A DNA stretch of 64,000 nt from assembly GCA_016208915.1 (NCBI GenBank), contig JACQXE010000037.1, positions 4,905-68,904 on the forward strand, written 5' to 3'. Made by a program: the position numbers and the translations under genes. Within the stretch, counting starts at the first letter, position 1. Each line of letters begins with the position of its first letter. The notes beneath the pieces were generated by a model. It was not told the DNA's origin. It did not search any database and saw nothing but the letters and a program-made list of their open reading frames with translations. Below are positions 8,514 to 23,710 of the stretch, in pieces. The stretch comes from Nitrospirota bacterium. Its GTDB lineage: Bacteria > Nitrospirota > Thermodesulfovibrionia > Thermodesulfovibrionales > UBA1546.

Positions 8514-9026
8514 ATGAGAATAGGTGCCAGAATAAAAAACCTGCGTAGTAGCCAAAGAATTACCTTAAAGGAATTGGCAAAAAGGGCAGATCTCTCTATA
8601 AGTTTTGTCTCTCAGGTTGAGAGGGAAAAGACCTCGCCTTCCTTAGATTCTTTGAGTAAGATTGGTTCTGCCTTAGGGGTAAGTTTGGCACATCTTTTTT
8701 CACAAAGGCAAATCAAAGAAATCATCTTTATTAAAAAAAAGAAAAAGAAGATGCCTTTTTATTTTTCTGTTTTTAATGAGGCATTGGGGATAAAGATGAA
8801 GCCTTTGATTTTGGATTTAAAAGAAAAGGATGTAATCTTTGAGGGAAAAGGAAGAGGAGAAGAATTTGGATACGTGATTAAAGGAGAGATAGAGTTAGAG
8901 ACAAAAGGAGAAAAAGTTATTTTAAATGAAGGAGACAGTGTATATCTTATTAACCCTTTAAGGCACAAATTGGAAAATCTAAGCAACAAAAATTCTGTGG
9001 TTATTTGGGTTATGACAGGAAAATAA
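8514..9026 (+). CDS. XRE-family HTH transcriptional regulator with a C-terminal cupin-like domain
   Basis: N-terminus IKNLRSSQRITLKELAKRADLSISFVSQVEREKTSPSLDSLSKIGSALGV matches HTH_3. C-terminus GYVIKGEIELETKGEKVILNEGDSVYL is cupin-like. Confidence 0.75.
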   Translation: MRIGARIKNLRSSQRITLKELAKRADLSISFVSQVEREKTSPSLDSLSKIGSALGVSLAHLFSQRQIKEIIFIKKKKKKMPFYFSVFNEALGIKMKPLILDLKEKDVIFEGKGRGEEFGYVIKGEIELETKGEKVILNEGDSVYLINPLRHKLENLSNKNSVVIWVMTGK

Positions 9027-9050
9027 TTATTTCTTGTTAAGGAGGTGCAG

Positions 9051-9392
9051 ATGATAAAAGAAAGGAGGGAAAGCCCTCGAATAAAGAAAAGTTTTCCTGT
9101 CTATTGTACTTCTGTTGGTAAAGGTCTTCTGGGGAAAGGGATTGGGCGTAATATTAGCAGGGAAGGTTTGGGTATTGAAATAGAGTCCTCTTTTTCTTTA
9201 GGAGAAGATGTGAAGATGGAAATATACTTACCTTCTGGCAAAAAAACATTTTATTCCATTGAACTTATTGGTAAGGTTGTTTGGGCAAGGAAGAATAATG
9301 AATCTCGAAGAGATTTTTGTAATAACTATTTTATGGGAGTAAGATTTTTGGAGATAGACAAAGAAATCAATGAAAGGTTAGTTTCATTATAA
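9051..9392 (+). CDS. PilZ domain protein (putative c-di-GMP receptor)
   Basis: RRESPR...(N)ISREGLG matches the PilZ RxxxR / D/NxSxxG signature. AAGGAGG lies 5 nt upstream of ATG 9051 (the track start at 9045 is a GTG). Confidence 0.7.
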   Translation: MIKERRESPRIKKSFPVYCTSVGKGLLGKGIGRNISREGLGIEIESSFSLGEDVKMEIYLPSGKKTFYSIELIGKVVWARKNNESRRDFCNNYFMGVRFLEIDKEINERLVSL

Positions 9393-9421
9393 AATAAGGA
9401 GGGATTTTTTTTGCTTTTAAA

Positions 9422-9463
9422 TTGAAGTAATACTGAAAATTTGAAGTAATACTGAAAATTTGA
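9422..9463. repeat. 19-bp tandem direct repeat (2.2 copies) upstream of gvpA; candidate regulator binding site
   Basis: ttgaagtaatactgaaaat occurs at 9422-9440 and again at 9441-9459, then ttga. Confidence 0.8.
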
Positions 9464-9571
9464 TGTTTTGGGATTGGCGCTTATAAAGAGTGAATTTAAA
9501 CCCGTTAAAAATGCCAAAGTCTTAGAGAAAACAAGATTTCTAACGGGTAAACAAGAAAGGAGGTGAATATC

Positions 9572-9778
9572 ATGGCAGTGGAAAAAGCAATAGGTTCTTC
9601 CAGCTTGGTAGAAGTTATTGACAGAATCCTGGATAAGGGCGTTGTGATTGATGCCTGGGTAAGGGTCTCCTTAGTTGGTATTGAAATACTCGCTATTGAG
9701 GCAAGAGTAGTTGTGGCATCAGTTGAGACCTATCTGAAATATGCTGAGGCGATTGGTTTGACTGCAACAGCAGCGTAG
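9572..9778 (+). CDS. gvpA: gas vesicle structural protein GvpA
   Basis: [63 protein letters not shown] is the canonical GvpA sequence. GGAGG lies 8 nt upstream of ATG 9572. Confidence 0.97.
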
Positions 9779-9946
9779 GGATTGGTCAGTAACTAAAAAC
9801 CTATCTAACGATAGGTAAAGGATTCTTGCCGAGTTATCCTATTGCCCCTATCTGGGACAAAAAGCATAATTCGCCAAGAAACTCCTTCTTGTAGCCTGCG
9901 TGAAATAACGTAACCTGAAGATGTGGTTACTAATAGAAAGAGGTAA

Positions 9947-10741
9947 ATGAAAGCAATGCCCTTAGCAGAAGATATGAATCCCGTTAGACATTCCGAAGAT
10001 AAGGAAATGACTATATCAAAGGAAAAGACTTTGCATATGTCTAACGGGATGAAAGATATTGTCAATGATATGATTTTCTCTTATGAGGCAAGGATCCAGA
10101 GCATGGAAGCTATTTTTGATGCTACCCATCAAATCCTCCAGGGTTTCCAAGATTCCTTCCTTGATGCAAGACAAGAGGAAAAACTTACCTCTGAACTACG
10201 GGAGACTCTTGCCAAAGACAAGTCTCTAAGAAAGAAGGATTTTGACAATATGATGCAGGGTATTCTTTCAGCTCAAGAGGAGAGGAAAAAGGAAGTAAGG
10301 AATTTGTTAAAAGGTTATCTTAATGGACAGAAAGAGGTAGCACAGACTTTAAAAGATAATCTGGCTAAGGTCAAAGATGTCCTTGTCAGAGGTGAGACTG
10401 GAAGGGTCAAAGAATTCCAAGGCTTGATTAAAGAGATTCTTGCTAAACAAGATGAAAGAAAAGATGAAGTTACCTCTAAGCTGAAAGAGTTTCAAAAAGA
10501 GCAACATGAGATGGCAAAAAGACTCAAAGAACTTTTAACAAAGGGAAGAGAGCTTCGGATAAAGGATCTCAAATTAATGCTTAAGGAATTCAATGCCCAA
10601 TATAAAGAGCGGATAGCCTGCCAGAAAGAAAGAAGGGAAGATGTTTGCAGTATGCTGGGTGAGTTTAAGAAAGAAAGAATAAAAAAGGTGCGGAGGAGTA
10701 AAACCCCCTTTAGAGAGGAACTTATTAATCTAACGGAGTAA
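9947..10741 (+). CDS. Lys/Glu-rich coiled-coil repeat protein, paralogous at its N-terminus to the next ORF (putative gas-vesicle-associated scaffold); start uncertain (possibly ATG 10037)
   Basis: It shares the motif I(F/T)SYE(A/E)R...(A/D)TH..L.GF with ORF 10793. Internal degenerate repeats include ILSAQEERKKEVRNLLKGY, ILAKQDERKDEVTSKLKEF and FNAQYKERIACQKE. Confidence 0.6.
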   Translation: MKAMPLAEDMNPVRHSEDKEMTISKEKTLHMSNGMKDIVNDMIFSYEARIQSMEAIFDATHQILQGFQDSFLDARQEEKLTSELRETLAKDKSLRKKDFDNMMQGILSAQEERKKEVRNLLKGYLNGQKEVAQTLKDNLAKVKDVLVRGETGRVKEFQGLIKEILAKQDERKDEVTSKLKEFQKEQHEMAKRLKELLTKGRELRIKDLKLMLKEFNAQYKERIACQKERREDVCSMLGEFKKERIKKVRRSKTPFREELINLTE

Positions 10742-10792
10742 ATAAAAGATAATCCGCCAAAAATATGGCGAAAAAGAAAAGGAGGGCTAAAA

Positions 10793-11347
10793 ATGGGAAT
10801 AGCTGAGAGTATGAAAGAGATTACAGAAAATATTATTACTTCCTATGAGGAAAGGGCAAAGGCACTTGGTGATTTGGTATCTGATACCCATGCAACCTTA
10901 AAAGGGTTTGCGCAAGACCGTGAAAAAATGGCTGGTGAGCAACGAGAAACTCTATCTAAATTTACAAAGGATTTGTCAAAGAGCGTAGGAAATATGCTTA
11001 AAGAGTTCAAGAAGGACCATGGACAGATGAGTGATGATCAAACAAAAAACTTAGCAGATTTTATTAAGAATCTGACTAATGATGTAGGTTCAATGTTAAA
11101 TAGGTTTCAAAAGGATCGTGACAAGATGTCAAAGGAACTTAAGAACAAACTCGCTAAAGAGGTAAAAGATATTGGAACCTATGTCAAGCAACTCCTAGGT
11201 GAATATAGCTCGGATATGAAGAAGGCGAAAGAGGCCTGGCAGGGTATGTCTAAGACACTGGCCGAAGAGGCGATTGAAGAAGTGGGCGAAGAAGAAGCAG
11301 TTAGAAAGCCCAAGAAGAAGAGAAAGAAAAGAGGAAAGAAGAAATAG
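10793..11347 (+). CDS. repeat protein with four tandem 33-residue repeats and a poly-Lys tail (GvpC-like by architecture)
   Basis: These segments align without gaps at a 33-aa period: LVSDTHATLKGFAQDREKMAGEQRETLSKFTKD / LSKSVGNMLKEFKKDHGQMSDDQTKNLADFIKN / LTNDVGSMLNRFQKDRDKMSKELKNKLAKEVKD / IGTYVKQLLGEYSSDMKKAKEAWQGMSKTLAEE. Confidence 0.65.
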   Translation: MGIAESMKEITENIITSYEERAKALGDLVSDTHATLKGFAQDREKMAGEQRETLSKFTKDLSKSVGNMLKEFKKDHGQMSDDQTKNLADFIKNLTNDVGSMLNRFQKDRDKMSKELKNKLAKEVKDIGTYVKQLLGEYSSDMKKAKEAWQGMSKTLAEEAIEEVGEEEAVRKPKKKRKKRGKKK

Positions 11348-11387
11348 GTTAAGTACTCTATCTAAGGAGAAAGGACGGTGAGACAAG

Positions 11388-12302
11388 ATGATTGATGAGA
11401 TGACTACGGTATTGGAGCCGAGTCCTCTGCCAGACTTTGTGGAGACAAAGTATATCAAGGATATCACTAAGAGGGCACTTGACTATATAAAGGCAGGTTT
11501 TCCAGTCCATTTTAGAGGGGTATCCGGTTCCGGCAAGACTACGTTGGCTATGCACATAGCAAGTAAGATTAAAAGGCCGATGGTAATGATTCATGGAGAT
11601 GAAGAATTCACAACCTCTGATCTTGTAGGTGGTGAATATGGTTACAGAATCAGAAAGGTTGTAGACAGATTTATCTCACGGGTATTAAAAACAGAAGAGG
11701 ATATGGTAAAGCGCTGGGTGGATAACCGTCTGACCGTTGCCTGTAAGTATGGATTTACCTTGATATATGATGAATTTACACGTTCAAGGCCAGAGGCAAA
11801 TAATATCCTTCTTTCTATTTTACAGGAGAAGATGATGGATTTGCCGGTAGGAAGAGGCGGTGAGGAACCATATTTAAGAGTAGATCCAAATTTTACTGCT
11901 ATTTTTACATCTAATCCTGAGGAATATGCCGGTGTCCACAGGAGCCAGGATGCCTTAAGGGACAGAATGATAACCATGGACTTAGACCACTTTGACTATG
12001 ATACAGAGGTCGCAATAACTCAGGCGAAATCTAAACTTTCTAAAAAGGATTCTGAGAAAATAGTGAATATTGTAAAAGGTTTAAGAGAATCCGGGAAGTG
12101 CGAGTTTGCTCCAACTATTCGCGGATGTATTATGATTGCAAAAACCCTTAAAGTTCAGGGTATCACTCCTACAAGTGCCAATGGCGCCTTTATGCCGATT
12201 TGCCAGGATATATTGGCCTCTGAGACGAGCAGGATTGGCTCAAAGACGAATCAGAGCAGGGTAAAAGAGACAGTTAAGGAGTTGGTTGAGAAGTATAGTT
12301 AG
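11388..12302 (+). CDS. gvpN: gas vesicle protein GvpN (AAA+ ATPase)
   Basis: 304 aa. Walker A GVSGSGKTT, Walker B LIYDEF, GvpN-like length, and position after gvpA and the C-like genes. Confidence 0.85.
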   Translation: MIDEMTTVLEPSPLPDFVETKYIKDITKRALDYIKAGFPVHFRGVSGSGKTTLAMHIASKIKRPMVMIHGDEEFTTSDLVGGEYGYRIRKVVDRFISRVLKTEEDMVKRWVDNRLTVACKYGFTLIYDEFTRSRPEANNILLSILQEKMMDLPVGRGGEEPYLRVDPNFTAIFTSNPEEYAGVHRSQDALRDRMITMDLDHFDYDTEVAITQAKSKLSKKDSEKIVNIVKGLRESGKCEFAPTIRGCIMIAKTLKVQGITPTSANGAFMPICQDILASETSRIGSKTNQSRVKETVKELVEKYS

Positions 12303-12503: not shown

Positions 12504-12809
12504 ATGAAAGGAATGTTGCAGATACCCGGCATTAAAGATATAAAAAGTACACATTCTGTAGGTGCACGGTCTATTCCAAAGGTACAAAGGTCAAGTTATT
12601 TAGAATTATATATGCGTAGAAGAGAGAAGGATAGATTAGAGAAAGAAATCTTCGCGTTAGATAAAAGAAGAGACACAGCGAATAGGCAATTGAACAGCAT
12701 CAATAAGCAAATTGAAAAATTACAGAAAGAAGTGCACGAAGAGCAAAAGATTAATACTTATAGAGGGATACCTACAAGGCCGCTTAAGACAATGGCTATA
12801 AATTATTAA
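12504..12809 (+). CDS. small coiled-coil protein of unknown function within the gvp island
   Basis: 101 aa. SYLELYMRRREKDRLEKEIFALDKRRDTANRQLNSINKQIEKLQKE shows a heptad-like pattern. I recognise no family. Confidence 0.5.
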   Translation: MKGMLQIPGIKDIKSTHSVGARSIPKVQRSSYLELYMRRREKDRLEKEIFALDKRRDTANRQLNSINKQIEKLQKEVHEEQKINTYRGIPTRPLKTMAINY

Positions 12810-13004: not shown

Positions 13005-13048
13005 AAAAAGAGACTTTTTCAAGAGCTCGATTATAAAGGTTGATATCT

Positions 13049-13435
13049 ATGATTGGGGATAAAAAAGAAATAAAGAGAATAGAGAAATTAATTAAAAAGG
13101 CGCAGAGGTCTTTAAGATTATCGTCTTATAAAATTAGATGTAATCTTGTAAAGGCTGATTATTCAGAATATGCCGGGATAATTTGCCAACATCCAAAAAG
13201 AACAGCGACAATAGATTTTAATAGAAAAAGGATTCATCAGGAATTAGAAAATACTGTAATTCACGAATTACTGCATTTATTATTTAATAAACATCTGAGT
13301 GTTGCAGAGGATGTTTTTGAAAGACAGAGAAAATATAAAAGCTTACGGAAATATCAAAAAGGCGAAGAGAAAATAATCAATATTTTAGCGCCCTTGCTTG
13401 AGAAGGTAATTTTTGAAAATCAAAGGAGAAGGTAG
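13049..13435 (+). CDS. small HExxH-motif protein (putative Zn-metallopeptidase-like)
   Basis: The motif is VIHELLHLLF. The ORF ends 2 nt before the Hsp20 gene. I prefer ATG 13049 over the TTG at 13040. Confidence 0.5.
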   Translation: MIGDKKEIKRIEKLIKKAQRSLRLSSYKIRCNLVKADYSEYAGIICQHPKRTATIDFNRKRIHQELENTVIHELLHLLFNKHLSVAEDVFERQRKYKSLRKYQKGEEKIINILAPLLEKVIFENQRRR

Positions 13436-13437
13436 TC

Positions 13438-13977
13438 ATGGCAAAAGAAAAAAAGAAAAGGAAAGAGGAAGAAGAAGGATTGGATATTGATTTTGGCATA
13501 GGTAAATTGAGTCTGGGGGGGTTATTTAAAGGCATTGAGAATTTAGTTGACCTTGCCGCTAAGTTAAAAGAAGCAGGTGGTGAAATTAAGAAAGAAGGCG
13601 AGATTGACCTGAGCCGACTTAAAGAAGGCATGAAGGGGGTCTATGGTTTTTCAATAAAGACAGCAGTTGGCGGAAAACCGATGGTTGAGACATTTGGCAA
13701 TATCAAAAAGACACCTGAAGGACCTGTCGTAGAAGAAGAAAGAGAGCCCTTAACAGATGTGTTTGATGAGAAAGACGAAGTAGTGGTTATATCTGAAATT
13801 CCGGGAGTTCATGAGGAAGGTATATCGGTAGATTTAAAGGGGGACATACTGGAGATTTCAGCAGTGGGCAAAAGCAGAAAATATCGTAAAGAAGTCCTCC
13901 TGCCAGTGCAGGTCAAGAAGGAAACACTTTCTTATACATTTAAGAACGGTATCTTAGAAGTTAGAATTAAAAAGTGA
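13438..13977 (+). CDS. Hsp20/alpha-crystallin family small heat-shock protein with a Lys/Glu-rich N-terminal extension
   Basis: The C-terminal PLTDVFDEKDEVVVISEIPGVHEEGISVDLKGDILEISA...LPVQVKKETLSYTFKNGILEVRI matches an alpha-crystallin domain. Confidence 0.8.
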   Translation: MAKEKKKRKEEEEGLDIDFGIGKLSLGGLFKGIENLVDLAAKLKEAGGEIKKEGEIDLSRLKEGMKGVYGFSIKTAVGGKPMVETFGNIKKTPEGPVVEEEREPLTDVFDEKDEVVVISEIPGVHEEGISVDLKGDILEISAVGKSRKYRKEVLLPVQVKKETLSYTFKNGILEVRIKK

Positions 13978-13981
13978 AACG

Positions 13982-14082
13982 GTCATGCCGACAATTAGGC
14001 ACAAAGGGGAATGAAAAACTGTCATTCCCGCGCAGGCGGGAATCCAGAAAGACACTGGATTCCGTGTCAAGCACGGAATGAC
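13982..14082. repeat. compound hairpin repeat element (GTCAT...ATGAC family)
   Basis: gtcatgccgacaattaggcac... followed by gtcattcccgcgcaggcgggaatccagaaagacactggattccgtgtcaagcacggaatgac. Track ORF 14011..14223 translates it. Confidence 0.8.
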
Positions 14083-14098
14083 AAAATTTTGATAATAG

Positions 14099-15112
14099 GT
14101 GGATGGCATTATAAGCGGACTATTAGAGCCGTCATTGAAGCTGATTCTATTCGGCGGGAAGGGAGGTGTTGGGAAGACTACCTGCGCCGCAAGTGCAGGG
14201 CTTTATTTAGCAAACAACAATAAGAATACCTTGCTTATCTCCACTGACCCAGCACATTCTTTATCGGACAGTCTGGGCAAGGAGATTACGAATGAGATAA
14301 CGCAGATAAAAGGAGTAGATAAATTAAGTGCTATGGAGATAAGCGCGGAAAAGGCATTGTCAAGTTTCAAAGCAGAATATCAAGATGAACTGAAAAGACT
14401 CTTTGATACAAGCACTTATTTAGATAAGGAAGATATAGATTCCATACTTGAGCTGCCTATACCAGGCATAGACGAGGTAATGGGATTCAAGGTCATTGTG
14501 GATTTAATTGAAAAGGAAGAATTTGACAAATACGTAGTGGATACTGCGCCAACAGGCCATGCCCTGAGGCTTTTGACTCTGCCTGAACTCTTAGATGACT
14601 GGATAAAGGTTCTGGCAAAGATGAGATGGAAATACAGATATATGGTTACTACCTTTGCCGGTAAATACAGGCCTGACAGCGCTGATGATTTTCTTATGAG
14701 CATGAAAAAAACAGTCAAAAAAATTGAGGGGCTGCTGAAAGATGAGAACAGATGTGAATTCATAGTTGTCACGATCCCTGAGGATATGGCTATTAAAGAA
14801 ACAGAGAGGCTGATAAGAAATCTGAATCAATACGGGATGAAGGTGAAGCAGTTGATTATCAACAATGTTATTCCAGAGGGAGACAGGTGCAGTTTTTGTC
14901 AAGCGAGGAGAAAAGGCCAGGACAAATATATCAAAGAGATTAGAGATAAATTTAGCGATTTAAATATAACGGTTATTCCCCTTCAGCCCCACGAGGTAAA
15001 AGGGATAAATGCACTGAAAAACTTAGAAAGTATGATATTTAGCAAGAACGCACAATGTCACCCTGAACTTGATTCAGGGTCTAAAAGAGACGCTGAAACG
15101 AGCCTGCCCTGA
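14099..15112 (+). CDS. Get3/ArsA-family ATPase with a CxxC motif; the last ~20 codons are repeat-derived
   Basis: P-loop GGKGGVGKTT, STDPAHSLSD, DTAPTGHALRLL, and CSFCQARRKGQDKYIKEI...VIPLQPHEVKGINALKNL, which resembles the Get3 CxxC dimer-zinc region. The C-terminal HPELDSGSKRDAETSLP is the translated hairpin repeat. Confidence 0.8.
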   Translation: MDGIISGLLEPSLKLILFGGKGGVGKTTCAASAGLYLANNNKNTLLISTDPAHSLSDSLGKEITNEITQIKGVDKLSAMEISAEKALSSFKAEYQDELKRLFDTSTYLDKEDIDSILELPIPGIDEVMGFKVIVDLIEKEEFDKYVVDTAPTGHALRLLTLPELLDDWIKVLAKMRWKYRYMVTTFAGKYRPDSADDFLMSMKKTVKKIEGLLKDENRCEFIVVTIPEDMAIKETERLIRNLNQYGMKVKQLIINNVIPEGDRCSFCQARRKGQDKYIKEIRDKFSDLNITVIPLQPHEVKGINALKNLESMIFSKNAQCHPELDSGSKRDAETSLP

Positions 15113-15161
15113 AGAGATTCTGAACCAAGTTCAGAATGACACTTTCAGGGTTCAGCATGAC
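15057..15161. repeat. compound hairpin repeat element (GTCA...ATGAC family) spanning the Get3-like/Cdc48-like junction
   Basis: gtcaccctgaacttgattcagggt...gattctgaaccaagttcagaatgac...ttcagcatgac. Confidence 0.8.
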
Positions 15162-15180
15162 AATTGAGAGGTATTTTCGA

Positions 15181-17304
15181 ATGAATAATAATGAAAGTTT
15201 CATAACCTTAAAAGTAAAAGAGGCATTACCTAAAGATGTGGGAAGGGCGATAGTTAGAATAGACCCTGAGGATATGAAAAAATTGGGGGTTGAGGTAGGC
15301 GAGATTATAGAGATTAGCGGTAAAAGGCAAACACCAGCCAAGGTAATGCCCTGCTATGCCGAAGAAAGGAACAAAGGGATTATTCAGATAGATGGAATAA
15401 CAAGGGAAAATGCACAGATCGGGATAGATGAAAAGGTAAAGATTCAAAAAGTAAAAGCTAAGCCGGCAAGTAAGATTACATTAGTGCCTCTGAACATATC
15501 AGGTCTTATGAATAAGGATAAGGATATTAAGTATATCGGTTCATTGATCGGAGGGCTTCCACTGACTGTCGGCGATAGGATTAGAGCCAGTCTTTTTGGG
15601 GCAAGAGCCTGTGACTTCAAAGTAGTAGATACAATTCCTGATGGGGTTGTGCTTATCGAGCCCACAACTCTAATCAAGATAAAAGATAAAGGAACAAAAG
15701 ATATAAAAGAGACACGTATATCCTATGAGGATATAGGCGGACTCCACACTCAGATTCAGAGAATCAGAGAGATGATTGAACTCCCACTTAAATACCCTCA
15801 GATTTTTGAAAGATTGGGGATTGGCGCGCCCAAAGGGGTTTTTTTATACGGCCCTCCAGGCACTGGTAAGACTCTGATAGCACGGGCAGTAGCGAATGAG
15901 ACAGAGGCATATTTTACTCATATATCAGGACCTGAAATAATGGGCAAATTTTATGGTGAGAGTGAAGCCCGCTTAAGAAGTGTATTTGAAGATGCGCAAA
16001 AACATGCCCCTGCCATAATCTTTATTGATGAGATAGACGCCATTGCCCCTAAGAGAGAAGAGATGGGCGGAGAGAAGCAGGTTGAGCGGAGGGTTGTGGC
16101 TCAGCTCTTAGCACTGATGGATGGATTAGAATCAAGGGGTGAGGTTATAGTTATAGCTGCAACCAATATCCCTAATGTTATAGACCCGGCATTGAGGCGG
16201 CCGGGTAGATTTGATAGAGAAATTTCAATTCCTATACCCGACAGAAATAGCAGACTCGAGATACTCCAAATTCATACAAGGGGGATGCCCCTATCAGAAG
16301 ATGTAAGTCTTGAAAAGTTAGCCGATATTACCCATGGATTTGTTGGAGCAGACTTAGAGGCATTAGCCAGAGAAGCAGCGATGTCGGCTTTAAGAAAAAT
16401 TCTACCTGAGATCGATTTTGAGCTGGCAGATATTCCTTATGAAACACTCATGGAGCTTCAAGTGACTATGGATAATTTCTTAGAAGCCATGAAAGAGGTT
16501 GAACCATCAGCAATTAGAGAATTTTTTGTAGAGGTGCCTGATGTCAAATGGGAGGATGTGGGTGGTCTTGAGAATATTAAAGAGGAACTAAAGGAGGCAA
16601 TTGAATGGCCTCTTAAATATTCTGATATTTTTAAAAAGGCAGGCACAAATCCTCCTAAGGGAATTTTACTCTATGGAGTTCCTGGTACAGGTAAAACCCT
16701 TTTAGCCAAAGCAGTGGCTAATGAGAGTGGAGTGAATTTCATCTCAGTCAAAGGACCGAGTTTGATATCGAAGTATGTCGGCGAAAGTGAGCGTGGAATC
16801 CGTGAGGTCTTTAAAAAGGCAAAGCAGGCATCACCTACAATCCTATTTTTTGATGAGATAGACAGCCTTGTTCCCAAAAGGGGTTCAGGAGGCTCTGATT
16901 CTCAGGTAACAGAACGAGTGATAAGCCAATTCCTGACTGAGATGGATGGAATTGAAGAACTTAAGGGCGTGGTAGTTTTAGCCGCTACTAATAGATTAGA
17001 CCTGATTGACCCTGCTATCTTACGCAGCGGCAGATTTGACCTTTTGCTTGAGTTGCCTGTGCCTGATGAAAAAACGAGAGAAGAAATATTCAGAATACAT
17101 ACTGAAAATAAACCGCTGGCTGATGACGTTGATTTGAAAGAGTTAGCTAAAGAGACTGAAGGTAAGGTGGGCTCTGATATTGAGTTTATCTGTCGGAAGG
17201 CTTCTATGTTGGCGATAAGAGAGTTTATAGAGCACCGGCAAAATTTAAAGTTTTTGAGAAAGCATTTTCAAGATGCTATCAAGTTAATCCAAAGGGAGGT
17301 TTAA
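15181..17304 (+). CDS. Cdc48/VAT-type double AAA+ ATPase (N-domain + D1 + D2)
   Basis: Cdc48-N-like [42 protein letters not shown]. Two Walker A motifs, GPPGTGKTL and [12 protein letters not shown] 15181 with a GAGAGG SD is preferred, because the track start at 15136 lies inside the repeat. Confidence 0.9.
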
Positions 17305-17485
17305 AATAGCAAAGATTATTGAGAAGATTAAGAATTTCTTCAAAGGCAAAAAGAAAGAAGAGCCTAAAGCCCAACAGGAAAAACCTAAAACAGAAGAGAA
17401 GCCTGAAGAACAAAAATAGTAGAAAAGAATAAAAGGATCACTAAAAGGGGAGGGTGGATAATCCTCTCGATATAAATTTTTGATA

Positions 17486-18511
17486 ATGGCTGAAATAGAA
17501 GGTATATATATCTACGGTATTGTTGATACTGCAGGAGAGAAAAGTCTCGGCATTGCTGGAATCACTGCGTATGGAGAGGTCTATACAATTCCACATCAGG
17601 ATATTTCTGCGGTTGTAAGTGATTCACAATTTGTAGATTACACCGCTCTTTCTAAGGATCGAGTTGCAAGATATCTTCTTGCTCACCAGCAGGCAATAGA
17701 GAAGATTATGGATTCTCATACCATTATTCCTGTGAAGCTCGGCACTTATGCCTTTAATATCAGAGAGGTAGAGGAGATTTTATCAAAGGGATACACAATG
17801 TTTAAAGATGTATTCAGGACGATCAATAACAAGATTGAGATTGATGTGGTAGCAACATGGAACGATTTGAATTCAGTAATTAAAGAGATCGGCGAAGACG
17901 AAAAGATTAAAGAGCTTAAAGAAAAGCTGATGTCTAAGCCTGAAGGTATATCTCTTGAAGACCAAATGAAGATAGGCAGTCTCATTAAGGATATTTTATA
18001 TATAAAGAGAGAAAAACTTGCCTCTGAAATAGGGACTGTATTAAGAAAGGTGAGTATAGATTCAAGGGCACATGGTCTTATGGATGACAGGATGATCTTT
18101 AATGCCGCCCTTCTTATAGATAAGGATAAAAGGGCTGAATTAGAGAAAGGATTAGATGAGATGAATGGGTTGTACAATGAAAAAATAGATTTTAAATGTG
18201 TTGGCCCTTTACCTCCATATAGTTTTTACACTGTAGAGGTTAAGAAGATCCCTTTTGGTGAGATAGATTGGGCAAAAGAAAAATTGGGCATTGATAACAT
18301 ACCAACAAAGGAAGATATCATAAAAGCATACCGCAGCAAAGCCAACTTATATCATCCAGATAAGAACAGAGGCGCTTCGGATGCAGACAGGCAATTTAAT
18401 GAAGTATTCAGGGCGTACAAAATCCTCCTTGAATACTGTCAAGAAGAAACTTGTTCATTTGATGAAAAAGAGTTCGGTCAAGATGCCATCATTGTAAAGA
18501 TAAGAGATTAA
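17486..18511 (+). CDS. GvpF/GvpL family protein fused to a C-terminal J-domain (DnaJ-like, HPD motif)
   Basis: N-terminus IYIYGIVD...ISAVVSD...HQQAIEKIMDSHTIIPVKLGT...FNAALLIDK...GPLPPYSF matches GvpL/F. C-terminus TKEDIIKAYRSKANLYHPDKNRGASDADRQFNEVFRAYKILLEY is a J-domain. Confidence 0.85.
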   Translation: MAEIEGIYIYGIVDTAGEKSLGIAGITAYGEVYTIPHQDISAVVSDSQFVDYTALSKDRVARYLLAHQQAIEKIMDSHTIIPVKLGTYAFNIREVEEILSKGYTMFKDVFRTINNKIEIDVVATWNDLNSVIKEIGEDEKIKELKEKLMSKPEGISLEDQMKIGSLIKDILYIKREKLASEIGTVLRKVSIDSRAHGLMDDRMIFNAALLIDKDKRAELEKGLDEMNGLYNEKIDFKCVGPLPPYSFYTVEVKKIPFGEIDWAKEKLGIDNIPTKEDIIKAYRSKANLYHPDKNRGASDADRQFNEVFRAYKILLEYCQEETCSFDEKEFGQDAIIVKIRD

Positions 18512-19283: not shown

Positions 19284-19790
19284 ATGTTATCAGGGACAGA
19301 AGCAGATATTATAAATACTGTTGCCAGATTAAAAGAGGCAACCAAGGACCAACTAAGAAAAGAGGTAGGTTTTTCTTCAGATTATATTAGCTATTTATGT
19401 GGATATTTGGTCAGAAAAGGTTATCTAAATTTTTCTGATGGGCATTATTCTCTGGCAAGGATGGAAATAAAGACTTTGCGGAGAGAAGATACACAGATCG
19501 ACAGGGAGTTAATCAAAGAGATTGCCAATGAGGTTGCTGGAGAGCTCAGTGGTAAGTTAAGAAAAACAGTAAAAGAGATAAAAATACCGGTTGCACAGAT
19601 AAGGCAGAAAGCAAAACAGATACCAGAAGAAAAAATAAATCCCGATTTTGAATTTCCTGTAGAGGATGAAAGTTTAGCCTTAGAAAGTAATATCAATAAA
19701 ATAGGGCCAAACTTAGAAAAAGAGAAATCTAACATTGACAGGTTAGTGAAATTATTTAAAAAAATTCAAAAGAGATGGAGGAAAAGATGA
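19284..19790 (+). CDS. winged-helix (MarR/TrmB-like) N-terminal domain protein, putative regulator
   Basis: EADIINTVARLKEATKDQLRKEVGFSSDYISYLCGYLVRKGYL is wHTH-like. The C-terminal half is charged. Confidence 0.5.
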   Translation: MLSGTEADIINTVARLKEATKDQLRKEVGFSSDYISYLCGYLVRKGYLNFSDGHYSLARMEIKTLRREDTQIDRELIKEIANEVAGELSGKLRKTVKEIKIPVAQIRQKAKQIPEEKINPDFEFPVEDESLALESNINKIGPNLEKEKSNIDRLVKLFKKIQKRWRKR

Positions 19791-20881
19791 ACAATGGGAA
19801 TGAAGAAAAGGAGACAAAGGACATTAAAGGACAAAAAGGTAAGGGAGTTGATATAGGGACAGTATTTGTAAAGTGTGCGTACACAGATAGTGATGAAGTC
19901 ATATTCAAGTCGCAGCGAAACGCCTTCTTTGAAGTAGAATATGCAGGTTTTACTATTACTAAGAAGATATTCGATGACCGTGGAATAAAATATGTTATAA
20001 AAGACGATAAACTTTATGTTGTAGGCAATGATACATTACAATTTGCCAATATATTTAATAAAGAGACAAGAAGGCCCCTAAGTAATGGTGTGATTAGTTC
20101 AACAGAAAAAGAGGCCCTTCCTATAGTAGAACTATTGATAAAGAGCGTGGTGGGTGAGCCTGCTGTCAAAGATGAGATAGTCTACTTTTCCGTCCCGGGT
20201 GAGCCTCTGGATGCAGATTTTAATATCATATATCATATAAAGACCCTTGAAGGATTCCTAAAGACTCTCGGTTATACCCCAAAGCCGATAAATGAAGCCC
20301 TGGCGGTTATATTATCCGAGTTAGCCGATAAAGACTTTACCGGAATCGGCATTTCTTTTGGTGGCGGGATGGTCAATGTCTGCCTGAGTTTTATGTCTGT
20401 GCCCATTTTTAAGTTTTCGGTTATCAGGGCAGGTGACTGGATAGACCAGCAGGTCGCTATGGCAGTGGATGAGGCAGCCACCCGTGTATCAGCGATAAAG
20501 GAATTCTCTCTTAATTTGAGTAGGGAAAAAGAATTAGGCAAGATAGAAAACGCCCTCTCCATATATTACAATGACCTCATTGGGTATGTAATTGAACATA
20601 TAAAGCAGGAGCTTGATAAGGCAGGGGGAGGGCCTGCTATGGCTAAGCCTGTAACTATTGTCCTATCTGGAGGTACTTCACTTCCCAAGGGTTTTGCCCA
20701 TAGGTTTAAACAGATTTTGGATCATTTGAAATTCCCTATTCCAGTTGGCGAGGTAAGGATGGCAGCACAACCTTTAAGTTCGGTAGCTAAGGGAGCATTG
20801 ATTGCTGCAAGGTCAGAAGGGGATAATAGTCAAACATCTGCTTCTAATAGGGCAAATGGAAGCATCCTTGAAAGAAGGTAA
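19775..20881 (+). CDS. actin/Hsp70-fold (ASKHA superfamily) ATPase, MreB/ParM-like size
   Basis: Phosphate-1 GVDIGTVFVK, phosphate-2 GIGISFGGGMVNV, and adenosine motif IVLSGGTSLPKGF. 368 aa. Confidence 0.7.
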   Translation: MEEKMNNGNEEKETKDIKGQKGKGVDIGTVFVKCAYTDSDEVIFKSQRNAFFEVEYAGFTITKKIFDDRGIKYVIKDDKLYVVGNDTLQFANIFNKETRRPLSNGVISSTEKEALPIVELLIKSVVGEPAVKDEIVYFSVPGEPLDADFNIIYHIKTLEGFLKTLGYTPKPINEALAVILSELADKDFTGIGISFGGGMVNVCLSFMSVPIFKFSVIRAGDWIDQQVAMAVDEAATRVSAIKEFSLNLSREKELGKIENALSIYYNDLIGYVIEHIKQELDKAGGGPAMAKPVTIVLSGGTSLPKGFAHRFKQILDHLKFPIPVGEVRMAAQPLSSVAKGALIAARSEGDNSQTSASNRANGSILERR

Positions 20882-22128: not shown

Positions 22129-23033
22129 TGTCGGCTCATGAGAAGGTGACGGGGATGAGGGAAAAATTAATATATGTTTATTGTGTTAGTCACAAAGAAC
22201 CGAATTTTAAAGATTCAGATTTAGGTAACTCCCACACCAAAATTTTTGGTGTGAGGGTTTACCCTATTTGCCACCAGGACCTTTATGCTGTGGTTAGTAA
22301 GGTTTCAGAGGATGAATTTACTGAGGAAAACTTAAAGAAGAATTTGTCCGATATGAAGTGGGTAGAGTCTAATGTCTTGAGGCATGAGGAAGTAATTGAA
22401 GAGATAATGAGAGATTGCACTGTTATTCCGTTTAAATTCGCCACTATTTTTAAGACAGAGGAAAATGTAAAGGCTTTGCTTGAAGAACACACCGAGGAAT
22501 TTAAAAAAAGTCTTGAGGGATTAGAAGGCAAAGAAGAATGGGGCATTAAGGTGTATTGTAATATTGATATTCTAAAGACAAATCTTATAAAGGAAAATGA
22601 GGAAATAAAAAGGATGGAGCAGGATATTAAATTGTCTTCTGCTGGCAAGGCTTATTTATTAATGAAAAAGAGGGATGGGTTAATAGAAAGTATTCTAAAT
22701 AAGAAAATCAATGAGTATGGTCAGGATATTTTTGAAGAACTTAATGCACTAAGCAGAGATACACGCATCAATAAACTATTGCCGAAAGAAGTAACTGAGC
22801 AAAAAGATGAGATGATCCTGAATGCTGCCTTTTTGATTGATACATGCAAAATCATAGTGTTTATTGATACTGCAATTTTTCTAAAGGAAAAATATAAAGA
22901 TAAGGGGCTCAACCTTAATTGCACAGGTCCCTGGCCCCCTTATAATTTCTGTTCGATAAACCCCATTAGTAGTGGGAGAGATTCAAATCTGTTTGAGACT
23001 CCTAAGGGGGTAAAGAAGGAAAAGGCAATATGA
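22125..23033 (+). CDS. GvpL/GvpF family gas vesicle protein
   Basis: LIYVYCV...LYAVVSKV...HEEVIEEIMRDCTVIPFKFAT...LNAAFLID...GPWPPYNF. Confidence 0.8.
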   Translation: MMSAHEKVTGMREKLIYVYCVSHKEPNFKDSDLGNSHTKIFGVRVYPICHQDLYAVVSKVSEDEFTEENLKKNLSDMKWVESNVLRHEEVIEEIMRDCTVIPFKFATIFKTEENVKALLEEHTEEFKKSLEGLEGKEEWGIKVYCNIDILKTNLIKENEEIKRMEQDIKLSSAGKAYLLMKKRDGLIESILNKKINEYGQDIFEELNALSRDTRINKLLPKEVTEQKDEMILNAAFLIDTCKIIVFIDTAIFLKEKYKDKGLNLNCTGPWPPYNFCSINPISSGRDSNLFETPKGVKKEKAI

Positions 23034-23710
23034 GCAGTGTTGTCCTGGAATCTAAGAATATAACCTTAGTAGAAACCCTAGACAGGGTGCTAAATAAAGG
23101 GGTAATTCTGAGCGGAGATATTACAATTTCTGTTGCTGATGTGGATTTAATCTTTGTAGGGTTGAAGGTATTACTTGCCTCTGTCGAGACAGCCGAGAAA
23201 ATGCGTTTAGGATATAAAAATGATAGGTGGAATGGGAAAAATGGCGAAACGAAGAATGAAAATACATCACCCTCCCCTCTATCCCCTCCCGTCAAGGGAG
23301 GGGAGTTTATGAGAGGCCCCTCTCCCTTGGCGGTCGCCTCATTCTCCTCAGCGAACCCGCCTGAGTGCGGGGGCGACTCGTCGAGGAGAGGAGAGGGCAA
23401 GGGTGAGGGGAGATTTTCGGAGCAACCCAAAGAGATAAAGGCAGTTCTCCCGAGAATTGATGCCGAGCCAGAAAAGGTTGAGCAAGGGCTATCAAAATTA
23501 GTATTAACTCTTATAGACTTGCTCAGAAAACTTATGGAGAAACAGGCTATAAGAAGAATAGACGGGGGTTCTCTTTCTGACAACGAGGTAGAAAAGCTTG
23601 GATATACGTTTATGAGATTAGAAAATAAGATGGAAGAGTTAAAAAAGGTATTTGGGCTTAAGGATGAAGACCTGAACTTAAACTTAGGTCCCTTAGGGGA
23701 TTTGATGTGA
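23030..23710 (+). CDS. fusion ORF: GvpA-like (GvpS/J/M-type) N-domain, then a GC-rich repeat-derived linker, then a GvpK-like C-domain
   Basis: N-domain: LVETLDRVLNKGVILSGDITISVADVDLIFVGLKVLLASVETAEKM. C-domain: EKVEQGLSKLVLTLIDLLRKLMEKQAIRRIDGGSLSDNEVEKLG...DLNLNLGPLGDL, the GvpK signature. I found no ATG/GTG/TTG in frame just upstream of the K part. Confidence 0.75.
   Translation: MSSVVLESKNITLVETLDRVLNKGVILSGDITISVADVDLIFVGLKVLLASVETAEKMRLGYKNDRWNGKNGETKNENTSPSPLSPPVKGGEFMRGPSPLAVASFSSANPPECGGDSSRRGEGKGEGRFSEQPKEIKAVLPRIDAEPEKVEQGLSKLVLTLIDLLRKLMEKQAIRRIDGGSLSDNEVEKLGYTFMRLENKMEELKKVFGLKDEDLNLNLGPLGDLM
23266..23414. repeat. GC-rich nested-palindrome repeat block inserted in frame inside the GvpA-like/GvpK ORF
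   Basis: tcaccctcccctctatcccctcccgtcaagggagggg...cccgcctgagtgcggg...gagggcaagggtgaggggag. It contrasts sharply with the AT-rich flanks and translates to SPSPLSPPVKGGE...GEGKGEG. Confidence 0.75.

Follow-up and report, generated by a model that had tools for sequence, protein, structure and literature searches.

A putative divergent GvpC and its 58-residue-repeat paralogue between gvpA and gvpN in the gas vesicle cluster of an uncultured Nitrospirota bacterium

GvpC coats gas vesicles on the outside as a minor structural protein and increases the pressure at which they collapse; it sets both this pressure and how the vesicles behave acoustically, and is the main engineering handle for ultrasound reporters. 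To our knowledge, it has been understood to date only from cyanobacteria, haloarchaea and Serratia. GvpC follows the ribs of the vesicle and lies on helix alpha2 of GvpA (PMC10185304), and in Anabaena one 33-residue repeat (49.5 Å) spans four GvpA (50.8 Å), while alanine at L4/12/30, F11/33 or R19 abolishes the strengthening (PMC9994262). The GvpC of Serratia sp. ATCC 39006 strengthens vesicles as well, those of the mutant collapsing at 0.14 MPa instead of 0.43 MPa (PMC4982088), and the haloarchaeal proteins carry helical repeats of 32-38 residues (PMC10903477). Here we analysed a 64,000-nucleotide stretch of DNA from an uncultured Nitrospirota bacterium (the window; contig JACQXE010000037.1), in which two open reading frames (ORFs), here called P1 and P2, stand between gvpA and gvpN. 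The annotated records of Nostoc sphaeroides plasmid p4 and Halobacterium pNRC100, from which the reference GvpC genes were taken, show the order gvpA-gvpC-gvpN, i.e. the same slot. The module comprises the following features, in window coordinates:

~9.5 to 24 kb of the window: the gas vesicle (gvp) cluster, large
9572..9778, + strand: gvpA, major gas vesicle shell protein (Pfam PF00741, 7e-16; NCBIfam GvpA, 1e-38)
9947..10741, + strand: P1, 264 residues, isoelectric point (pI) 9.2
10049..10150, + strand: N-terminal head of P1 (residues 35-68), common to P2 and cyanobacterial GvpC, with the motif ..SYE.R..........TH..L.GF
10793..11347, + strand: P2, 184 residues, pI 9.4
10865..11260, + strand: four 33-residue units of P2 in the Anabaena GvpC register (residues 25-57, 58-90, 91-123 and 124-156)
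11297..11344, + strand: Lys/Arg-rich tail of P2, AVRKPKKKRKKRGKKK, predicted to be disordered
11388..12302, + strand: gvpN, AAA+ ATPase (TIGR02640, 4.8e-100), which ends the gvpA - GvpC-like - gvpN module

Both ORFs were found where the original prediction, a reading of the letters of this DNA, had placed them (9947-10741 and 10793-11347), with ribosome-binding sites upstream (AGAGG, 5-10 nucleotides before the P1 start; GGAGG before P2), and the order gvpA - P1 - P2 - gvpN puts the pair in the GvpC slot. Aligned with itself, P2 gave local gap-free scores of 131 at an offset of 33 residues and 82 at 66, versus 32.5 ± 5.8 (maximum 59) for the best of all offsets in 300 residue shuffles. This bears out the exact 33-residue register that had been proposed, in which four units, read from residues 28, 61, 94 and 127, align gaplessly with L at position 9 and F/Y at position 12. 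P2 is laid out as a head, the four units, a conserved C-terminal ..EAWQGMS.. motif and a basic tail; its lysine-rich end, KPKKKRKKRGKKK, is just as had been described. For P1, longer repeats had been proposed, and the pair ILSAQEERKKEV (residues 106-117) and ILAKQDERKDEV (164-175) is indeed separated by 58 residues, the offset of 58 scoring 178 against a shuffle null of 33.6 ± 5.3 (maximum 72). Three P1 units of about 58 residues were delimited (93-150, 151-208 and 209-264, the last one of 56 residues). The original prediction had staked itself on the conservation of these repeats in orthologues, and conserved they are: the best self-offset was exactly 58 in all 120 P1 homologues, and the period was 33 or 66 in 77 of the 104 P2 homologues with a strong self-match, the remainder being 40 (20/104) and a few cases of 51 or 73. 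The 40-residue variants have a heptad inserted into the unit, and the number of units in P2-family proteins ranges from one to seven, most often three or four.

The paralogy that had been claimed for the two proteins also stood. BLASTP aligned P1 with P2 at E = 4e-11, and the two family profiles matched over their whole lengths in hhalign (probability 98.7 %, E = 4e-16, 157 columns), with the P1 unit corresponding to a P2 unit plus ~25 inserted residues. The shared N-terminal motif is real in both proteins (SYEARIQSMEAIFDATHQILQGF in P1, SYEERAKALGDLVSDTHATLKGF in P2), with the one correction that the gap between R and TH is 10 residues rather than the 4 given before. P1 and P2 are thus evidently paralogues.

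The profile of the P2 family was then set against cyanobacterial GvpC. With Nostoc GvpC, hhalign returned a probability of 91 % and E = 1e-6 over 100 gap-free columns, GvpC residue 2 falling on P2 residue 8; with an alignment of 15 cyanobacterial GvpCs, the score was 44.9 over 104 columns, GvpC Met1 falling on P2 Met7. Across the P2-GvpC comparisons the figures were 90-91 %, E ~1e-6 and 100-104 gap-free columns, and the match took in the non-repetitive N-terminal head, aligned end to end. In the same procedure reversed GvpC and the reversed P2 family scored 12.1 each, 150 column shuffles 11.0 ± 1.9 (maximum 16.9), and the unrelated helical proteins apoA-I, alpha-synuclein and tropomyosin 18.1, 17.2 and 14.0, respectively. 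By HMMER, the P2 hidden Markov model (HMM) gave 23-55 bits on the 15 cyanobacterial GvpCs versus at most 3.3 bits on reversed and 8.9 on shuffled sequences. The reciprocal GvpC HMM recovered 245 of 247 P2-family proteins at E <= 10, the 25 best with 40-72 bits, and the best per-sequence P, ~5e-19, is significant even in a library of 1.8 billion sequences. An artefact of periodicity or composition was rejected as the source of the similarity, since the reversed, shuffled and unrelated helical controls all lay near background. On these profile comparisons, P2 is a true, previously unrecognised distant homologue of cyanobacterial GvpC, belonging to a divergent subfamily rather than to a new family. 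The original prediction was therefore right about the GvpC-like architecture, namely all-helical tandem repeats of conserved period in the slot between gvpA and gvpN, while its wording ‘without obvious GvpC sequence’ and ‘possibly a new family’ fails at least for P2, which is a GvpC homologue and not a mere analog.

The homology extends to the register of the repeat and to the residues with which GvpC grips the shell. In the repeat numbering of Huber et al. 2023 (consensus YKELQETSQQFLSATAQARIAQAEKQAQELLAF), L4, F11, L12, R19, A23 and L30 are invariant in the cyanobacterial units, and Q26 (0.97) and F33 (0.94) nearly so. Among 553 distinct P2-family units we found L4 at 0.76, M11 at 0.45 in place of F, L12 at 0.82, R/H19 at 0.48/0.45, S/A23, Q/L26, L30 at 0.95 and F33 at 0.54, together with two additional conserved hydrophobic positions, F15 (0.93) and M22 (0.95); the binding face of GvpC (L4, F11, L12, R19, L30, F33; Huber et al. 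2023) was counted as present in P2. When the two 33-column profiles were cyclically shifted against each other, shift 0 scored 19.1, the next best 1.1 and the others -19.5 ± 10.7 on average, and the per-position information contents of P2 and GvpC units correlated with r = 0.70. The conserved positions 4, 8, 11/12, 15, 19, 22/23, 26, 30 and 33 follow a 4-3-4 (hendecad) spacing, which makes a straight stripe on a helix of 11 residues per 3 turns, and the observed indels (7; 25 = 11 + 14) leave this stripe roughly in phase. The presumed partner is conserved as well: the GvpA of the window is 83 % identical to that of Nostoc sphaeroides, and its GvpC-binding helix alpha2 differs from that of Nostoc by one conservative residue change. 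Residues required for binding in Anabaena thus appear conserved far beyond the cyanobacteria.

Compared with the GvpC of Anabaena/Dolichospermum flos-aquae (P09413; PF01304), P2 shares the gvpA-gvpN slot, the all-helical prediction, the 33-residue units and their register, L4, L12, L30, F33 and R19, a homologous N-terminal head and a nearly identical GvpA alpha2 partner. It differs in escaping PF01304 and NCBIfam, in having M for F11 and the extra F15 and M22, in being lysine-rich where the cyanobacterial protein is rich in glutamine and glutamate, and in its C-terminal end (..AWQGMS.. plus a basic tail or winged-helix domain, versus ..FRQDLFVSIFG). A second paralogue with a 58-residue period, i.e. 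P1, accompanies P2, whereas the cyanobacteria are without it, and some P2 orthologues have units of 40 or 51 residues. The Halobacterium salinarum pNRC100 gvpC lies in the same gvpA-gvpC-gvpN slot, its product has an extra C-terminal domain past the repeats, and the variation of repeat length in haloarchaea recalls that between 33 and 40 residues among P2-family proteins. Long amphipathic helices with 11-residue periodicity that coat a hydrophobic or periodic surface, like those of P1 and P2, are also known from apolipoproteins, apoLp-III, perilipins and phasins; these proteins show no significant similarity and have another genomic context, so the likeness is one of analogy only.

P1 stands at a greater distance from GvpC. 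Its period is 58 (33 + 25) instead of the 33 residues of GvpC and P2, its best local profile match to GvpC is the head motif ..SYE.R..........TH..L.GF, and its kinship to GvpC is only transitive via P2; by sequence, P1 is a derived paralogue of a P2-type protein, and as such a new repeat variant of the GvpC type. The protein is 100 % identical to HY755_05685, a ‘hypothetical protein’ of a Nitrospirae/Nitrospirota metagenome-assembled genome (MAG). It has 756 relatives at E <= 1e-3, the best 120 of which are 56-79 % identical; no meaningful Pfam domain was found in these 120, one of them giving a weak PF16566 match. P1 is also more conserved than P2, with a mean column identity of 49 % versus 38 %. 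Both proteins are predicted by AlphaFold2 to be all-helical, as GvpC is, with helices at residues 33-71, 75-89, 96-148 and 152-263 in P1 (predicted local distance difference test score (pLDDT) 73) and at 2-75 and 81-168 in P2, the tail of which is disordered. A PDB sequence search with P2 gave a best E of only 0.087, and with the P2 model Foldseek found no PDB entry under E = 2.2, as is to be expected of long helices.

The family is large and widespread. An indexed search returned 106 relatives of P2 with E down to 1e-65, and a profile made from 79 relatives matched 1444 clusters (50 % identity) at E <= 1e-3, of which 114 reached E <= 1e-30. Relatives of P1 were detected in at least 220 species-level genomes of more than a dozen phyla in a scan of one genome per species. 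The 80 genomes that were retrieved are all MAGs or single-cell genomes of uncultured organisms, assigned to Nitrospirota, Desulfobacterota (Syntrophorhabdus, Syntrophaceae), Planctomycetota, Omnitrophota, Elusimicrobiota, Bacteroidota/Ignavibacteria, Latescibacteria, Actinomycetota, Aminicenantes, Nitrospinota and others. Wherever the locus extended far enough to tell (~85 loci), gvpA was followed by P1, one to three P2-type genes, gvpN and a 101-residue protein, in this order, so P1 and P2 always co-occur. Additional genes, not present in the window, stand between P2 and gvpN in many related loci (L001:6808-7149, L004:6934-7257 and similar sites); one of these encodes a ~113-residue truncated P2-type paralogue, and that of L004 a 107-residue cysteine-rich protein with repeated CxxCxGxG motifs. 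Relatives named in the databases are ‘hypothetical’ or bear unrelated automatic or generic names, none being called GvpC, and literature searches found no description of GvpC-like genes of this cluster type. Recognisable GvpC homology would thus reach a large family that has remained unannotated or generically named. This was exemplified by a ‘hypothetical protein’ between gvpA and gvpN on Methylocella tundrae plasmid 2 (L090:4291-5034), which matched the P2 profile with a probability of 94 % and E = 1.3e-7, has a 33-residue self-offset and shares the C-terminal W motif of P2; a P2-type GvpC therefore appears to be present, unannotated, in a cultured alphaproteobacterium too, and by this match GvpC is under-annotated in Proteobacteria as well. 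The 97-residue protein in the gvpA-gvpN slot of Spartinivicinus did not match the P2 profile.

Taken together, P1 and P2 are genuine genes, and their products are basic, all-helical and built of tandem repeats in the manner of GvpC, P2 being GvpC-like and P1 a second surface protein, a reading to which we assign a probability of roughly 0.72. The part concerning P2, that it is a GvpC homologue and functional equivalent, can be held with good confidence, while a structural role of P1 on the surface is favoured by a narrow margin over its negation. Both proteins are most likely outer-surface helical proteins that run along the GvpA ribs, and the vesicle binding, its geometry, the strengthening and the division of labour between P1 and P2 may be pictured as follows. 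P2 would lie as a long amphipathic helix along the rib, on the exposed helix alpha2 of GvpA, each 33-residue unit (~49.5 Å) covering about four GvpA subunits and contacting them through the stripe L4, V8, M11, L12, F15, R/H19, M22, Q/L26, L30 and F33. Such a coat would thicken and stiffen the shell, and the N-terminal head and the C-terminal W-containing motif could form the ends of, or the junctions between, neighbouring molecules. P1, having gained ~25 residues per unit to reach its invariant period of 58, would probably be a second, non-redundant surface protein.

Several observations weigh against this reading. PF01304 was absent from the 25 best families listed for P1, P2, the P2 repeat region and five family members, and no GvpC family came up in NCBIfam at E <= 1 for either protein; what Pfam and NCBIfam returned were sub-threshold matches to apolipoprotein-like and coiled-coil families. 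An Anabaena GvpC sequence scored 1e-75 with PF01304 in a scan of this type, so the scan works and the model is narrow; the missed matches are, to judge from this, a matter of narrow models rather than of non-homology. Halobacterium GvpC, which is very acidic while P1 and P2 are basic, did not match the P2 profile (E = 0.16). The profile of P1 did not reach significance against cyanobacterial GvpC directly (E = 0.06), and P1 retains the head and, in each core unit, L12, F15, M22, L26 and L30, but lacks the equivalents of R19 and F/M11. P2 orthologues with periods of 40, 51 and 73 residues misfit a strict ruler of four GvpA. The AlphaFold2 models are of moderate confidence (pLDDT 71-73; predicted template modelling score 0.35-0.41) and silent on binding, and the source organism is an uncultured Nitrospirota MAG. 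The C-terminal appendage, finally, varies among P2 orthologues between a basic tail, a winged helix and nothing: in many of them (e.g. P0001) a ~55-residue winged-helix-like domain, with a weak MarR_2 match (E = 6e-4, under the Pfam threshold), replaces the Lys-rich tail, and either appendage may point to a further or other partner, nucleic acid for instance.

The latter hint leads to the view that P1 and P2, and especially P2, are mainly nucleic-acid-binding regulators, e.g. of the RNA leader described below or of the gvp promoter. The basic tail AVRKPKKKRKKRGKKK, the weak MarR_2-like domain at the C-terminus of many orthologues, the conserved structured RNA directly upstream of P1 and a C-terminal Cys/His motif in haloarchaeal GvpC, too, would suit such regulators; yet the conserved bulk of the proteins is the GvpC-like repeat region and the appendage their variable part, the winged-helix match stays under threshold, and binding of nucleic acid could equally be a secondary feedback role on top of a structural one, which makes a mainly regulatory function quite improbable. 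Somewhat less remote, and still unlikely in our judgement, is that P1, P2 or both are assembly factors, i.e. amphipathic helical chaperones that hold GvpA subunits or nascent ribs and are then released, perhaps with the aid of the neighbouring GvpN, Hsp20, ArsA-like and CDC48-like ATPases. P1 is conserved above P2 (49 % versus 38 %), its listed homologues sharing 56-79 % identity with it, a degree that is unusual in a simple coat protein; it lacks two of the residues that GvpC needs for binding; and the module is always followed by gvpN, the conserved 101-residue protein, Hsp20, ArsA and CDC48. P2, however, retains the binding face and register of GvpC, tandem units of fixed period suit the binding of a periodic lattice and are not needed by a transient chaperone, and the GvpC homologues studied to date are structural (PMC9994262, PMC4982088).

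That the proteins form a generic coat of the apolipoprotein, phasin or perilipin type on lipid or hydrophobic inclusions, their resemblance to GvpC being convergent, was suggested by sub-threshold Pfam matches to ApoLp-III (4e-5) and Apolipoprotein (5e-5), by weaker YtxH, PhaP_Bmeg and Perilipin matches in family members, and by the hendecad spacing typical of such proteins. These matches fall well below their thresholds (ApoLp-III 24.1 bits versus 36.3, Apolipoprotein 23.5 versus 90, YtxH 19.6 versus 37.5), the P2 family scored 18 against apoA-I versus 44.9 against GvpC in hhalign, the GvpC match spans the non-repetitive N-terminal head end to end, and all ~85 loci have the genes between gvpA and gvpN. 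A generic role of this kind is highly improbable and was rejected on thresholds, hhalign controls and genomic context.

The newest aspects of this locus are the invariant 58-residue period and a conserved RNA leader. As to the period, 58 residues at 1.5 Å make 87 Å, and over seven GvpA this amounts to 8.29 residues per GvpA versus 33/4 = 8.25. The match of 58 residues to seven GvpA is suggestive only, as ~9 % of integer periods would give an equally good fit to an integral-GvpA ratio, and the P2 variants of 40 and 51 residues fall outside it; these variants argue against a strict molecular ruler. The natural repeat lengths of 33, 40 and 51 residues and the invariant 58 would offer a direct test of the proposal that each repeat covers an integral number of GvpA.

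The RNA lies in the gvpA-P1 spacer, which is conserved at the nucleotide level across phyla and contains two elements:

9799..9816, + strand: stem-loop ACCUAUCUAACGAUAGGU just past the gvpA stop, with no U-tract after it
9815..9891, + strand: structured RNA candidate of 77 nucleotides between gvpA and P1

Across 36 aligned sequences 17 columns are invariant, and the RNAalifold consensus structure consists of a 4-bp basal helix, a UUCUUG/CAAGAA helix, a conserved C-C mismatch, an 8-bp helix, CUU/AAG pairs and a variable apical hairpin. An Rfam cmscan of 9300-11500 at E <= 10 returned nothing overlapping 9779-9946, and the literature searches found no description of the element. Its covariance model found exactly one + strand match per P1-type locus (e.g. 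L060:5890-5970), always between gvpA and P1 (77 matches at E <= 1e-9, 81 at E <= 0.01), none elsewhere in ~0.9 Mb, and none in the cyanobacterial, haloarchaeal, Thiodictyon, Spartinivicinus and Methylocella loci. The Spartinivicinus and Methylocella loci, without the RNA motif, have one gene annotated between gvpA and gvpN, and P1 was not searched for there.

In an alignment of 77 sequences, which was fitted to the covariance model, a caveat to the pairing and covariation figures, 93.8 % of the cells were paired versus 38-54 % with the partners slid; compensatory changes occurred in 12 of 21 pairs (7.0 ± 1.4 in shuffles, 1/500 as high) and in 82 cells (33 ± 10 in shuffles, 0/500 as high), and the covariation score was 0.230 versus 0.171 when shuffled and at most 0.133 when slid. 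A DNA palindrome or operator at 9815-9891 was considered and rejected, since the sites score higher on the forward strand (43-85 bits versus 21-42 on the reverse) and many pairs are G-U, i.e. A-C mismatches on the other strand. The element is thus a candidate for a new, undescribed class of regulatory RNA, linked to the stoichiometry of an organelle shell.

By the medians, the element begins 16 nucleotides past the gvpA stop and ends 24 nucleotides ahead of the P1 start, and its 3′ arm (CCUCU) is complementary to the following Shine-Dalgarno sequence of P1. The region 9776-9950 folds with a minimum free energy of -49.1 kcal/mol (z = -3.8), and several homologous loci likewise form a strong hairpin after gvpA and before the RNA motif; the stem-loop at 9799..9816 may protect or stabilise the 3′-end of a processed gvpA mRNA. 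A + strand consensus scan of 9300-11500 gave no terminator-like site and no convincing sigma-70 promoter, and the region therefore looks like a single operon. Within it, the RNA probably sets the amount of GvpC-like protein relative to GvpA, i.e. a low GvpC-to-GvpA expression ratio, acting perhaps as a processing site or as a leader responsive to a protein or ligand. Free GvpC-like protein might bind the RNA via the basic tail or the winged-helix domain and so exert feedback as in ribosomal protein operons, or else processing at this site might uncouple the gvpA mRNA from the downstream genes. An outer cage of two or three GvpC paralogues with different fixed periods (33 = 4 GvpA, 58 = 7 GvpA), the supply of which is governed by a new cis-regulatory RNA class, is as a whole a speculative and rather doubtful proposal; if true, the stiffness of the shell, and hence pressure-dependent buoyancy, would be a separately regulated trait.

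The surroundings of the module within the window contain the following features:

8514-9392, + strand: helix-turn-helix (HTH)-cupin regulator and PilZ-domain protein (PF07238, 3e-13), directly upstream of gvpA
9422-9459: two exact tandem copies of the 19-nucleotide unit ttgaagtaatactgaaaat, ~110 nucleotides before gvpA
12504-12809, + strand: 101-residue coiled-coil protein with no Pfam family, after gvpN in essentially every related locus
13040-13435: 131-residue ORF with a weak SprT-like match
13438-17304, + strand: Hsp20/GvpH, a single-domain ArsA-like ATPase and a CDC48-type double AAA+ protein, in an order kept in related loci
17480-18511, + strand: GvpL/F fused to a C-terminal DnaJ (J) domain, also found in L002 and L004
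19284-19790, + strand: small MarR-like winged-helix protein with a weak MarR_2 match, within the cluster
19775-20881, + strand: actin homologue of the Volactin family (PF25216, 1.3e-93), between GvpF paralogues
23030-23710, + strand: GvpJ-like Gas_vesicle domain fused to GvpK

The start of gvpA is likely ATG 9572, giving 68 residues, while the mechanical ORF begins at GTG 9563; in most homologous loci gvpA encodes 67-72 residues, mostly 68, longer values being mechanically extended ORFs. The tandem repeat of ttgaagtaatactgaaaat upstream of it could be a candidate binding site for a regulator, and in related loci sigma-54 activators and response regulators take the place of the HTH-cupin and PilZ genes. 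Downstream, the 101-residue coiled-coil protein stands where Halobacterium has gvpO. Four GvpL/F paralogues are encoded in the window, the first being the one fused to the DnaJ domain, and the cluster further contains GvpG, a weak GvpO-like protein and, besides the GvpJ-GvpK fusion, another GvpA-like protein. This type of cluster is unusually rich in chaperones and ATPases (Hsp20/GvpH, ArsA-like and CDC48-type). An actin homologue inside a gas vesicle cluster is unusual as well, and the Volactin-family protein might serve to position the vesicles.

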